64,000 nt of DNA from Thermodesulfobacteriota bacterium (GTDB taxonomy: Bacteria > Desulfobacterota > Desulfobaccia > Desulfobaccales > 0-14-0-80-60-11). The notes under the pieces are model-generated. The model made no database searches. It saw only the letters and a program-made list of their open reading frames with translations, and was not told the origin of the DNA. Where the stretch lies: NCBI GenBank assembly GCA_049322315.1, contig JBMORF010000042.1:40915-104914 (forward strand), given 5' to 3'. Below, piece after piece: positions 20,070 to 24,301 of this stretch; position 1 is the stretch's first letter; every line of letters starts with the position of its first letter. Made by a program: the position numbers and the translations under genes.

Positions 20070-20330
20070 TGGGAACGAGAACGTAAGGCAAAGCTGGAGC
20101 TTTGCGGGCAATTGCGTTCCCAAGCAGAGCTTGGGAACGAGAGTAAAGTGGAGCTTGGGAGGGAGGATAAGGTAGGGTTTGGGAAGGACAACAAAAATCA
20201 ATTTATTAAAGATTCTATTAAAGTTTCAGATTGATTAGTTGGAAAGGATATATTAAAGGAAAATATCCTCTCATCCTCTCGTTCCCAAGCTCCGGCTTGG
20301 GAACGGAATTGCCCGCAAAGCTCTGCTTTG
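20070..20330. repeat. REP cluster upstream of the RAYT gene (CGTTCCCAAGC..GCTTGGGAACG and GCAAAGC..GCTTTGC hairpins)
   Basis: Copies at about 20088-20140 and 20278-20330 in opposite orientation, with partial copies nearby. Confidence 0.85.
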
Positions 20331-20342
20331 TCTTAGCTGGCT

Positions 20343-20879
20343 ATGAGAACGCGCTACCGGATAATTGATAATTCCTATCCTTATTTTCTGACCTGCACCA
20401 TTATTGAATGGCTGCCGGTTTTTACCCGGCAGCCTTATTTTGGAATCGTTATTGATTCCTTGAAGTATTGCCGGGAGCGGAAGGGGTTGAAGATTTATGC
20501 TTATGTGATTATGGACAACCATCTGCATTTGGTGGCTGAGGGGGAGCGGTTGGGGGAAACGATTAAGGAGTTTAAGAGCTATACCGCGCGTGGCATAATT
20601 GAGTTGGCAAAGTCGGAGGGCAAAGACTGGCTGCTGAATCAGTTTAAGTTTTTCAAGGCCAGGCATAAGCAAGAGAGTAGGCACCAAGTGTGGCAGGAGG
20701 GGTTTCATCCGCAGTTGGTGAGTTCGGGGGAGATGCTGGCGCAGAAGGTGGAGTATATCCATGACAATCCGGTGAAGGCAGGGTTGGTGTCAAGGCCGGA
20801 GGATTGGTTGTATTCGAGTGCGAGGAATTATTATTTAGGGGAAGCGGGGATGTTGGAGATTGATGAGCTTGATTGGTAA
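20343..20879 (+). mobile_element. REP-associated tyrosine transposase (RAYT, Y1 HUH family)
   Basis: YFLTCT, AYVIMDNHLHL (HUH), FKSYTAR, VWQEGFH, YIHDNPVKAGLV, W.YSS; flanked by REPs. Confidence 0.92.
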
Positions 20880-20934
20880 GGCAAAGCAGGAGCTTTGCGG
20901 CAAGTGCGTTCCCAAGCTGGAGCTTGGGAACGAG
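20880..20934. repeat. REP doublet downstream of RAYT, inverted relative to 20278-20330
   Basis: gcaaagcaggagctttgcggcaagtgcgttcccaagctggagcttgggaacgag. Confidence 0.85.
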
Positions 20935-21110
20935 GGAGAAAGGTAGCGTCTGTCCGGATTGATAGCCTCCTACTCATTTTCCCCATAATAGTAACTATCC
21001 CGTCTTTTCCACTTCTTCCACAAATTTTCATCCTTCCATTTTTGCCCGTATAGAGACTTGTCGATTAGTTTAAGGTTCGTGCGAAATTTCACTATCCCTG
21101 GACAGAAATC

Positions 21111-21139
21111 TTGACAGGGGGCGGGGAGGGGAATAAAAT
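21111..21139 (+). promoter_or_regulatory. sigma70-type promoter about 435 nt upstream of the aminotransferase-serA operon
   Basis: TTGACA (21111-21116), 17-nt spacer, TAAAAT (21134-21139). Confidence 0.7.
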
Positions 21140-21160
21140 TATTAATTCTTATAGTTTTGT

Positions 21161-21556
21161 AAAATCCCCTCGTGAAGGCGGCGAGGTTGGGCCCTGGGCC
21201 GGAGTTGGGCCGGGGCAAGGGTAATACAGTTTTTAGTTTTTGGTTTTTGGTAAAAAAATTGTCAATTATTAATAGGTTATTAATTGGATTGGTGGCCGCA
21301 GGAGCAGAACTTGAGATAAAATCCCCTGGGGCAGGCGCCGGGGGTTGAATTAGAGGAGCGCAGGCTAGAAAGCCTGCGCCACCAGCGCAGGCTGGAAAGC
21401 ATGTGCCACCAGGACAGGCTGGAAAGCCTGGGCTACCAGGGCAGAGGAGCGCAGGCTGGAAAGCCTGTGCCACAAGGGAAAGCCTAGGCCACCGGCACAG
21501 GCTGGAAGGCCTGGGCCACAGGCTGAAAAAATCCCCTCGGGCAGGTACCGAGGTTG
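21161..21556 (+). promoter_or_regulatory. Three copies of a 29-30 nt hairpin motif AAAATCC-stem-GMAGGYR loop-stem-TTG in the operon leader
   Basis: Copies at 21161-21189, 21318-21347 and 21528-21556. Confidence 0.7.
21357..21525 (-). repeat. Tandem array of about 6 GTGG/GTAG-type REP hairpins
   Basis: gcgcaggctagaaagcctgcgccacc and variants; the reverse strand reads GGTGGCGCAGGCTTTCTAGCCTGCGC. Confidence 0.8.
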
Positions 21557-21575
21557 TTAAGGTAAGGGAAAAGCG

Positions 21576-22721
21576 ATGAAAATGTATCTGATGACTCCGG
21601 GTCCCACGCCGGTGGCGCCGGAGACCAATCTGGCCATGGCGCAGCCCATTATTCACCACCGGTCGCCGTTGTTCATGGAGATTCTGGGGGAGGTGCGGGC
21701 GGACCTGAAATATCTTTTCGAGACGGAACAGGAAGTGCTGATCTTCGCAGCCACGGGCACCGGGGCCATGGAAGGGGCGGTGGCCAACACCCTGAGCGCC
21801 GGGGACACGGCGTTGGTGGTGGACGGCGGCAAGTTCGGCGAACGCTGGACGGAGCTGTGCAACGTCTACGGCGTGAAGGTGGAGCGCCTGGCGGTGACCT
21901 GGGGCCACGCGGTGGACCCCAAGGAAGTGGCGAAGATGCTGGACGCCAACCCGGCCATCAAGGCGGTCTTGGTCCAGGCCAATGAGACCTCCACGGGAGT
22001 ATCGCATCCGATTAAGGAACTGGCAGAGGTCACGACAAAAAGACCCGGCACCATCCTGGTGGTGGACGCCATCAGCGCCCTGGGGGGCTACTCCATACCC
22101 ATGGATAAATGGGGCATCGACGTCCTGGTGGCGGGCTCGCAAAAGGCGATGATGCTGCCGCCGGGGCTGGCGTTTGCGGCGCTTTCGCCTAAGGCCTGGG
22201 GGTTCGTGAAGGAATCGAAACTGCCCAAGTATTACTTCAACTTCTCCAAGGCGCTCAAATCCGCAGAGAAGAACCAGACGCCCTATACTTCGCCGGTGTC
22301 GTTGATCCTGGGCCTCAAGGAAGTGCTGGGGAAGATCAAGCAGGTGGGGCTGGAGAAAATTTACGCGCACAACGCGCGGCTGTCTGCGGCCTGCAAGGCG
22401 GCCATGAAGGCCATGGGCCTGGAGCTTTACTCCAAGGATTATCCGTCCACGGTGCTGACCGCGGTGCTGGCGCCCGCGGGGGTGGACGGCCAGAAGGTGG
22501 TGGCGGAGCTCAGGAAGAAAGGCATCTGGATCGCCGGGGGCCAGGCGGAGGCCAAGGGCAAGATTTTCCGCATTGCGCATATGGGTTTCATCGACACCGT
22601 GGACCTGCTGGGCACCATCGGCGGCCTGGAAGAGGTGCTGACGGCCCTGGGGTATAAAGTGCAGCCGGGCGTGGGGCTGAAAGCCGCGCAAGAGGTTTTG
22701 GCCAAGGAGGCGGCGGTATGA
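21576..22721 (+). CDS. Class-V PLP aminotransferase (serine-pyruvate/alanine-glyoxylate family; likely acts as SerC next to serA)
   Basis: MTPGPT, HHRS, GTGAME, NETSTG, VDAIS, GSQK (PLP lysine), FRIAHMG. Confidence 0.9.
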   Translation: MKMYLMTPGPTPVAPETNLAMAQPIIHHRSPLFMEILGEVRADLKYLFETEQEVLIFAATGTGAMEGAVANTLSAGDTALVVDGGKFGERWTELCNVYGVKVERLAVTWGHAVDPKEVAKMLDANPAIKAVLVQANETSTGVSHPIKELAEVTTKRPGTILVVDAISALGGYSIPMDKWGIDVLVAGSQKAMMLPPGLAFAALSPKAWGFVKESKLPKYYFNFSKALKSAEKNQTPYTSPVSLILGLKEVLGKIKQVGLEKIYAHNARLSAACKAAMKAMGLELYSKDYPSTVLTAVLAPAGVDGQKVVAELRKKGIWIAGGQAEAKGKIFRIAHMGFIDTVDLLGTIGGLEEVLTALGYKVQPGVGLKAAQEVLAKEAAV

Positions 22722-24301
22722 AGGTCCTGATCAGCGATAATTTGCACGAGGCGGGGGTGGCGGTTTTGGAGGCCCAGCCCAATATCGAGGTGGTGAATAA
22801 GCCGGGTATGAAACCGGAGGAGTTGAAGGAAGCCATCAAAGACGCGGACGCGCTGGTGATCCGCAGCGCCACCAAGGTGACCGCAGAACTGATGGCGGGC
22901 GCGCCGCGCCTCAAAGTGGTGGGGCGGGCCGGCACGGGCCTGGACAACGTGGACATCCCGGAGGCCTCCAAAAGAGGCGTGGTGGTGATGAACACCCCCG
23001 GGGGGAACACCATCACCACCGCGGAACACGCGCTGTCCCTGATGATGGCCCTGTCCCGGAACGTGGCCCAGGCGGCCCAGTCCATGCGGGAAGGGAAGTG
23101 GGAGAAGAAGAAGTTCCAGGGGACGGAATTGTTCAACAAGACCCTGGGGGTCATCGGCTTAGGGCGCATCGGCTCCATCGTGGCGGACCGGGCCCTGGGG
23201 CTGAAGATGCGGGTGCTGGGTTACGACCCCTTCATCACCAAGGAAGCGGCGGCCAACCTGGGAGTGGACCTGGTGTCCCTGGACGATCTCCTGGCCCGGG
23301 CAGATTTTATTACGCTGCATACGCCCAAGACCAAGGATACGGCCAAGATTCTGAATAAGAAGGCCTTCAAGAAGATGAAACCCGGGGTGCGCATCATCAA
23401 CTGCGCCCGGGGGGGGCTGATCGATGAAGAAGCCCTGCTGGCGGCCCTGAAAGAGGGCAAGGTGGCGGCCGCAGCCCTGGACGTCTATGAGACGGAGCCG
23501 CCGGGCGCGGATTTTCCCTTAAGGGAGTTGCCCAACGTGATCTGCACCCCGCACTTGGGCGCGTCCACGGAAGAGGCCCAGGCCAACGTGGCGGTGGCGG
23601 TGTGCGAGCAGATCGTGGAGCTGCTGCTGTACGGCACCATCAAGAACGCGGTGAACGCGCCCTCGGTGAGCCAGGAGAGCATGGCCAAGCTGAAGCCCTA
23701 CCTCACCCTGGCGGAGGCCCTGGGGGCCTTCCAGGCGCAGACGACGGAAGGGGCTATTTCCGCGGTGAGTATTGCTTATATCGGGGAAGTCTCCAAGCTG
23801 GACACCAAGCCTCTGACCCACTCCCTGCTTAAAGGGCTGCTCTACCCGGTGATGCACGACGAGGTGAATTATGTGAACAGTCCAGCCATGGCTGCGTCCC
23901 GGGGAATCCACGTGAGCGAAGAGATGGTGGCGTCGGCGGAGGATTTCGCCACGCTGATCCGCCTCACCGTGCGGGCCGGGAACGAGGAGAACTCGGTGGC
24001 GGGGACCATCTTCGGGAAATATGAGCCGCGGCTGGTGCGGATCAACAAGTTCCGGCTGGAGGCGGTGCCGGAAGGACATTTGCTGTTCATCTACAATACG
24101 GACCGTCCCGGGGTGATCGGGGCCATCGGCACCACCATCGGCAAACACAACATCAATATCGCCCGGATGACCGTGGGCCAAGAAAGGGAGCGGGGGCAAA
24201 ACATCATCCTGCTGACCACCGACACGCCGGTGACGCCGGAATGCCTGAAGGACGTGCGGGCCCTGGAACACGTGGCCATGGCCATCCAGTTGGAGTTGTA
24301 A
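22718..24301 (+). CDS. serA: D-3-phosphoglycerate dehydrogenase (long form with ASB and ACT domains)
   Basis: RAGTGLDNVD, GLGRIG, NCARGG, TPHLGAST.EAQ, DRPGVIG ACT domain. Confidence 0.96.
   Translation: MKVLISDNLHEAGVAVLEAQPNIEVVNKPGMKPEELKEAIKDADALVIRSATKVTAELMAGAPRLKVVGRAGTGLDNVDIPEASKRGVVVMNTPGGNTITTAEHALSLMMALSRNVAQAAQSMREGKWEKKKFQGTELFNKTLGVIGLGRIGSIVADRALGLKMRVLGYDPFITKEAAANLGVDLVSLDDLLARADFITLHTPKTKDTAKILNKKAFKKMKPGVRIINCARGGLIDEEALLAALKEGKVAAAALDVYETEPPGADFPLRELPNVICTPHLGASTEEAQANVAVAVCEQIVELLLYGTIKNAVNAPSVSQESMAKLKPYLTLAEALGAFQAQTTEGAISAVSIAYIGEVSKLDTKPLTHSLLKGLLYPVMHDEVNYVNSPAMAASRGIHVSEEMVASAEDFATLIRLTVRAGNEENSVAGTIFGKYEPRLVRINKFRLEAVPEGHLLFIYNTDRPGVIGAIGTTIGKHNINIARMTVGQERERGQNIILLTTDTPVTPECLKDVRALEHVAMAIQLEL

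Follow-up and report, generated by a model that had tools for sequence, protein, structure and literature searches.

We analyzed a 64,000-nucleotide (nt) stretch of contig JBMORF010000042.1 from assembly GCA_049322315.1 of a Thermodesulfobacteriota bacterium (here G000), focusing on the leader of its serine-synthesis operon; positions below are those of this window. The leader lies in the intergenic stretch 20880-21575, between a gene for a REP (repetitive extragenic palindromic)-associated tyrosine transposase (RAYT) and the aminotransferase-serA operon. The first gene of the operon (21576..22721, + strand) encodes a class-V aminotransferase (PF00266, 1.5e-31). No NCBIfam equivalog scored above its cut-off for this protein, which is presumed to be a phosphoserine/serine-pathway transaminase, with the substrate assigned from operon context. 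The second gene, serA (22718..24301, + strand), encodes D-3-phosphoglycerate dehydrogenase (TIGR01327, 681.6 bits against a cut-off of 454), with PGDH_inter and ACT domains, and its start overlaps the aminotransferase stop by 4 nt. Within the leader, a short hairpin motif occurs three times. This motif is real, operon-specific and conserved in six genera, and it is probably a cis-acting leader element of the serine-synthesis operon that has not been described previously.

The leader begins with a sigma-70-like promoter (21111..21139, + strand; TTGACA, 17 nt, TAAAAT) that matches at 11 of 12 positions. It was the sole site reported within 20850-21650 by a promoter scan, and the promoter block is kept in orthologous leaders. 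Its placement suggests a transcription start site (TSS) near 21146-21148. Because the only promoter in sight points that way, the + strand of the hairpins would be the one that enters the mRNA. Downstream of the promoter, a degenerate pattern for the motif matched the window exactly three times, starting at 21161, 21318 and 21528, each time on the + strand; 100 shuffled versions gave no match. An independent repeat search of the window recovered the same three units of ∼29 nt as one family.

To characterize the copies, we built a covariance model from them (R1) and searched the whole assembly (4,066,732 bases). The three copies scored 42.9-46.8 bits, and the next best match, at 23.9 bits, was chance-like. 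Likewise, blastn-short of the leader versus its own genome found no other copies of the three hairpin stretches. Copy 1 (21161..21189, + strand; R1 45.5 bits) is promoter-proximal, keeps the ancestral 5' context and is identical in sequence in the closest relative, G004. Copy 2 (21318..21347, + strand; R1 42.9 bits) sits in the middle, carries one extra G and pairs in a shifted register. Copy 3 (21528..21556, + strand; R1 46.8 bits) lies beside the ribosome-binding site (RBS), at the place held elsewhere by a single ancestral copy. It ends 19 nt before the ATG at 21576, and this offset is that of the single copies in other genera. The Shine-Dalgarno (SD) block, AAGGTAAGGGA (21559..21569, + strand), ends 6 nt before the ATG, lies outside the hairpin stem and forms conserved columns family-wide. 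The GAGG of copy 3 is ∼22 nt from the ATG and is not the working SD. These results bear out three claims of the original prediction, which was made from the letters of the window: three copies after a near-consensus promoter, a last copy ending 19 nt before the ATG next to the RBS, and a motif that is not scattered through the genome.

We then asked where the hairpin occurs in relatives, using a family set of 69 genomes of the Desulfobaccales (Thermodesulfobacteriota) from 14 genera, all of them metagenome-assembled genomes (MAGs). A second covariance model (R2), made from 14 units of six genera, was run with stricter filters under which weak copies can be missed; in G000 it scored copy 1 at 41.8 bits and missed copy 2. 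R2 gave 35 matches at E<=0.05 in 28 of the 69 genomes. By genus, positives numbered 5/9 in g1 (G000 included), 15/18 in g3, 4/4 in g11, 1/1 each in g6, g7 and g12, and 1/2 in g2. For 29 of the 30 best loci fetched, the match stood directly upstream of the orthologous aminotransferase-serA operon; the exception was a weak g2 match inside a coding region. Among 78 named loci, which come from the same genomes as the 28/69 set, 22 carried a total of 27 matches, all on the + strand and upstream of the gene. The match ended ∼15 nt before the ATG, a fixed offset across loci. The aminotransferase ortholog itself was found in 40 of 41 relatives, and the 450 nt upstream was inspected for 30. Hence the motif, expected in orthologous leaders, is indeed present there in six genera.

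Copy number turned out to be a local trait. Outside the genus of G000, a single hairpin occupies the same place (g3, g11, g6, g12 and g7). Within the genus, conservation covers the promoter block and the sequence from there to the first hairpin, and copy number differs: G005 has one copy, G004 and G002 have three each, and G003 has two clear and two weak copies; in G007, the contig is cut at the leader. Triplication is thus not the conserved state, with one copy outside the genus and one to four within it. Copies of one genome are more alike than same-position copies in sister genomes, a pattern compatible with duplication or gene conversion of recent date. In G004 and G002, alteration is greatest in the middle copies, whose 3' ends have changed, and the outer copies keep their promoter-side and RBS-side contexts. 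A contig from a soil metagenome bridges 21159 to 21561 by 34 letters that form one hairpin, showing that a wild relative has the single-copy form. In two DNA runs, metagenome contigs were also seen to skip differing parts of the leader (joints 21186-21443 and 20934-21452). This suggests that the leader is structurally polymorphic among wild relatives, with the qualification that several joints are short-sided and may stem from repeats. RNA contigs on the locus, from one metatranscriptome and covering a small share of the sequence, fell on coding sequence only. Taking the contigs of the metatranscriptome together with those of one probable DNA library (again small shares of the sequence), each fell within coding sequence or the REP at 20900-20934, leaving the leader uncovered.

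Two further R2 matches lay away from the operon. In G059, the whole promoter-plus-hairpin leader is duplicated (L161:7013-7135, - strand), 5 kb from the aminotransferase-serA operon. The duplicate precedes a gene for a 305-aa protein (L161:6095-7012) without a Pfam or NCBIfam match, which sources name exopolyphosphatase or nanoRNase/pAp phosphatase and which belongs to a widespread family, with 7830 relatives at E<=1e-10. A gene for an Rrf2-family regulator lies just upstream. The phosphoserine phosphatase step is described as an open gap in some sulfate reducers in PMC5764234 and PMC13759103, and on that background the G059 phosphoesterase may be a candidate for this role. With the 305-aa protein as query, no counterpart was found in G000. 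In G014, a weak match (L162:1930-1971, - strand; 22.8 bits) stands before a moaA-like open reading frame (ORF), a radical-SAM gene with a GTG start, and its GAGG arm is the likely SD of that gene. This hairpin may mask the SD and share no descent with the leader hairpin.

To see which features of the hairpin are constrained, we examined a unit alignment of 32 hairpin copies and a leader alignment of 21 single-copy leaders. Across the 32 units, the 5' flank (an A-run, T, then C/T) with the adjoining CCTC, and the 3' GAGGT, were nearly unchanged. By comparison, the closing pairs and the loop vary, and the distance from CCTC to GAGG ranges from 8 to 11 nt, being 8 or 11 nt inside genus g11 alone. 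Arms and 5' flank are kept across six genera, with aminotransferase identity down to 76%, while loop and spacers diverge. The loop had been taken as conserved, yet its similarity held just among copies of G000 and its closest relative G004; elsewhere both sequence and length vary. The claim that stem changes preserve pairing was right in part: a G-C in copy 3 is T-G in copy 1, but copy 2 pairs in the shifted register only.

Pairing was supported to a lesser degree. Paired cells made up 92.1% of the unit alignment versus 89.3% after shuffling (1 of 500 shuffles was as high) and 27-64% with slid 3' partners. One genome changed GC to CG at the fifth pair, a position mismatched (G-G) in three of its kin. 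For the 21 single-copy leaders, the sole prediction of RNAalifold was this 5-bp helix. RNAfold suggested, in single leaders, a long-range helix between an upstream pyrimidine-rich stretch and the SD block; this occurred in ∼10 of 21 rows, all from g3, its SD side is invariant and RNAalifold did not predict it, and our reading leaves it aside. In sum, structural support is modest, and the signal of sequence constraint, present in both arms, is stronger. In this genome, the 3' end of the 16S is GGATCACCTCCTTTCT; the hairpin 3' arm, GAGGT, is complementary to it, and the 5' arm resembles it. This match to the 16S tail could be what keeps both arms from covarying.

The stretches between the copies are of a different kind. 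After copy 1 comes a GC-rich hairpin (21190..21215, + strand), which follows a copy in G004, G002 and G003 too and has no other close copy in the genome. A T-rich repeat of 7-nt units follows (21220..21259; period 7 and 3.3 copies by Tandem Repeats Finder (TRF)), and blastn-short matched it at up to 22 other genomic places. Copy 2 is separated from copy 3 by an array of dispersed REP-type hairpin units with a 27-nt period and a GGAA-type loop (21357..21525; TRF 21357-21444 and 21486-21525). The 16-nt core of these units has 81 matches at <=2 mismatches, on many contigs and often in arrays. By blastn-short, 21380-21479 had 16 to 32 other genomic matches and 20880-20939 had 4 to 9. Because the intervening DNA largely recurs genome-wide and the three hairpin copies do not, the leader can be parsed as copy 1, GC-rich hairpin plus T-rich repeat, copy 2, REP array and copy 3.

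The RAYT gene (20343..20879, + strand; NF047646 REP_Tyr_transpos, 111.3 bits against a cut-off of 80; Y1_Tnp) is the upstream neighbor. It is outside the leader and marks the region as repeat-rich. The same palindrome pair brackets it on both sides (20088-20304 and 20881-20931) in a REPtron-like layout, and at their centers the palindromes are similar to the loop region of the REP core with its 81 matches. At the promoter end, a 5-1-5 inverted repeat, AATTA T TAATT (21137..21147), overlaps the -10 element and +1 and forms conserved columns in the leader alignment across genera. It has just eight exact sites genome-wide, with no common theme apparent among them; it may be a DNA operator. Two more boxes like it occur at 21266-21287, in the insert between copy 1 and copy 2, after a weak -35-like hexamer. 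We also considered a leader peptide and rejected it, as the leader ORFs, of 28 to 58 aa, cross repeat units and are not conserved.

We consider, with middling confidence, that the best explanation is a sequence-constrained stem-loop in the 5' untranslated region (UTR), placed by the RBS and serving translation control or factor binding, with the extra copies as by-products of repeat insertion. In the aminotransferase-serA mRNA, the unit would form a short stem-loop within the untranslated leader, fixed in sequence on its 5' side (A-rich flank plus CCCCTC(G)) and its 3' side ((C)GAGGTT), with the stem top and loop free to vary. In the putative ancestral arrangement, a single copy would sit ∼20 nt after the predicted TSS and end 4 to 6 nt before the SD block, and its action, on translation initiation or on the fate of the mRNA, would be at the RNA level. 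The hairpin may be the binding site of a sequence-specific trans-acting factor, itself putative. Alternatively, it may be an internal SD/anti-SD-like duplex, that is, a masked upstream SD-like site. The three copies would have arisen within the genus, when the REP array and the T-rich repeat were inserted and the ∼29-nt unit was locally duplicated. Such insertion would leave one copy in the promoter-proximal context and one by the RBS, with no designed tandem array. We entertain as a possibility, clearly more tentative, a fuller version: an undescribed, operon-specific serine-synthesis RNA of the Desulfobaccales, a functional counterpart of the serC motif, in which an SD/anti-SD-like duplex is read by a dedicated factor, possibly a pathway enzyme, and which is also a preferred site of REP landing and duplication, so that its copies multiply.

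Several observations weigh against a functional RNA stem-loop. Half of the pairs (3/6) never vary, and for that reason these three say nothing on structure. The two upper pairs do show compensatory changes, which favor pairing (one takes the forms CG/GC/TG, the other goes from GC to CG), but changes on both sides amount to just 4 cells. Wobble cells in the 32 copies that pair on one strand only number 3 for the + strand and 7 for the - strand, so the + strand is not favored; the G-U-compatible covariation read from the window as a sign of RNA does not generalize. Folded alone, the three copies are no more stable than shuffles (z = +0.44, -1.63 and -0.88). R2 found no match in 7 of the 14 genera (g9, 0/15; g14, 0/8; g5, 0/4; and g4, g10, g13 and g8), and three genomes of the same genus, G001, G006 and G008, have an intact operon without the hairpin, their leader being different and holding other repeats. 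From these absences, the hairpin appears dispensable or replaceable. The counts also overstate independence, because many rows are close kin. Finally, conservation among kin is not confined to the hairpin but extends over all of the leader between the -10 box and the ATG. The leaders of G006, G008 and G001 (L024, L025 and L028) contain tandem copies of another short repeat that is also found inside the G003 leader. In the sister family f2 (L044-L050), a different hairpin, with other arm sequences, lies ∼30-50 nt upstream of the aminotransferase ATG; a stem at this leader position may be older than the present hairpin sequence.

Such facts leave room for a generic stem in the 5' UTR, such as a mild stabilizer of the mRNA or a tolerated structure, conserved along with the short leader and present in three copies as neutral debris. 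Leader-wide conservation, the losses among genera and within the genus despite an intact operon, the decay of middle copies, the different f2 hairpin at the same place and the ordinary folding z-scores all fit this account. Yet six genera retain the CCTC/GAGG arms and the 5' flank while loop and spacers diverge, a purely structural hairpin should covary in its lower pairs as well, and G059 reused the promoter-plus-hairpin module before another gene; we regard a generic stem as unlikely, though worth keeping in view. The invariant half-sites around a spacer of variable sequence have the usual look of an operator, and a transcription factor that binds CCTCG-N-CGAGG past the promoter, as roadblock or repressor, would make the copies extra operators. 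The lack of strand asymmetry among wobble pairs and the second conserved inverted repeat over -10/+1 agree with this. A dimeric DNA operator is nonetheless disfavored relative to a hairpin because the CCTC-GAGG spacing varies, even within one genus, and because complementarity, with compensatory changes, reaches into the variable part. Moreover, the flanks are asymmetric (A-rich 5', GGTT 3'), and, as far as the loci were examined, no conserved regulator gene neighbors the operon. We judge a DNA operator to be distinctly unlikely.

The remaining explanations fare worse. An element by the RBS in the leader of a serine-synthesis operon invites the idea, raised originally, of a tandem riboswitch or direct sensor for serine, glycine or phosphoserine. 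But triplication, loop conservation and the G-U argument do not hold family-wide, and this makes a tandem riboswitch unlikely: the loop varies in sequence and length, + strand wobble is not favored, one helix of 4-7 bp is supported and no multi-helix fold, the ancestral state is a single copy, and no Rfam family comes near its gathering score. A direct sensor is accordingly highly improbable. What stands of the original proposal is a cis-regulatory leader element of the aminotransferase-serA operon, operon-specific, not scattered and present in orthologs; its tandem, riboswitch part probably does not. On the - strand, a terminator scan flagged copy 3 (6 pairs, then GGATTTTTTC), and the larger share of - strand wobble cells would suit an intrinsic terminator, hairpin plus T-run, that stops antisense transcription. 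Against this, one of the three copies was flagged, the T-run that follows the hairpin in the minus-strand view is just 3 nt in g3, and no - strand gene lies upstream in that direction, the neighbors being the + strand aminotransferase and serA genes; a minus-strand terminator is scarcely credible. The RAYT gene, 280 nt upstream, and the REP arrays between the copies might suggest that the hairpin, too, is a REP-type mobile repeat on which this RAYT acts. However, it has no copies elsewhere in the genome, always occupies one orthologous site and is present in leaders not flanked by RAYT (G002, G003 and other genera), and we give this idea almost no credence.

A constrained stem-loop by the RBS would matter for several reasons. 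Outside model bacteria, little is understood of how serine synthesis is controlled, and the sole RNA element described for it, the serC motif, has had orphan status since 2005. An unrelated second element, in leaders of this operon type in an uncultured lineage of sulfate reducers, provides an independent handle on serine control. Leaders with one copy and with three exist in nature and lend themselves to comparison, and the case illustrates how a regulatory site multiplied by repeat insertion can mimic a tandem sensor. Its value is moderate, as the element is small and simple, the hosts are all MAGs and the function is putative.

A limited literature search, which is not proof of absence, returned no description of a serA leader element in Desulfobacterota, and we compared the hairpin with known systems. 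It shares with REP/BIME (bacterial interspersed mosaic element) and RAYT systems the setting of short intergenic hairpin repeats beside a RAYT gene, and the units between the copies are of this kind; unlike them, the leader hairpin has no dispersed copies and keeps to a single orthologous site. With RNA thermometers, expression platforms and other SD-sequestering hairpins, the present hairpin shares the pairing of a CCTC-type with a GAGG-type arm close to the start codon, but here the working SD is outside the stem. Protein-bound leader hairpins, a kind also touched on by a remark in PMC1273637, include PyrR and ribosomal-protein operators; they are likewise short stem-loops with sequence-specific arms, located by the RBS of one operon, whereas the partner here is putative.

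The closest parallel is the serC motif (RF00517) of alphaproteobacteria. It lies in the leader of serC-serA operons and is still an orphan (PMC1273637, PMC7266159); no ligand is known for it, and its authors proposed a protein partner (PMC1273637). PMC1273637 describes two stems, with the RBS inside the final, GNRA-looped hairpin and the start codon <=11 nt behind. A cmscan of 20800-21700 at E up to 10 found no RF00517 match and listed six other families, each with a score far short of its gathering score. Kinship with this motif, which the original prediction had left undecided, thus found no support: neither the search nor the architecture, as described there, connects the two. By the same description, both are small elements right after a near-consensus promoter and before an operon for an aminotransferase and phosphoglycerate dehydrogenase. 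In contrast, the element described here has one stem, with the RBS outside it and, in this window, the ATG 19 nt behind the unit, and it occurs in another phylum, upstream of an aminotransferase of the class V family. It is analogous to the serC motif in context and not a member of that family.

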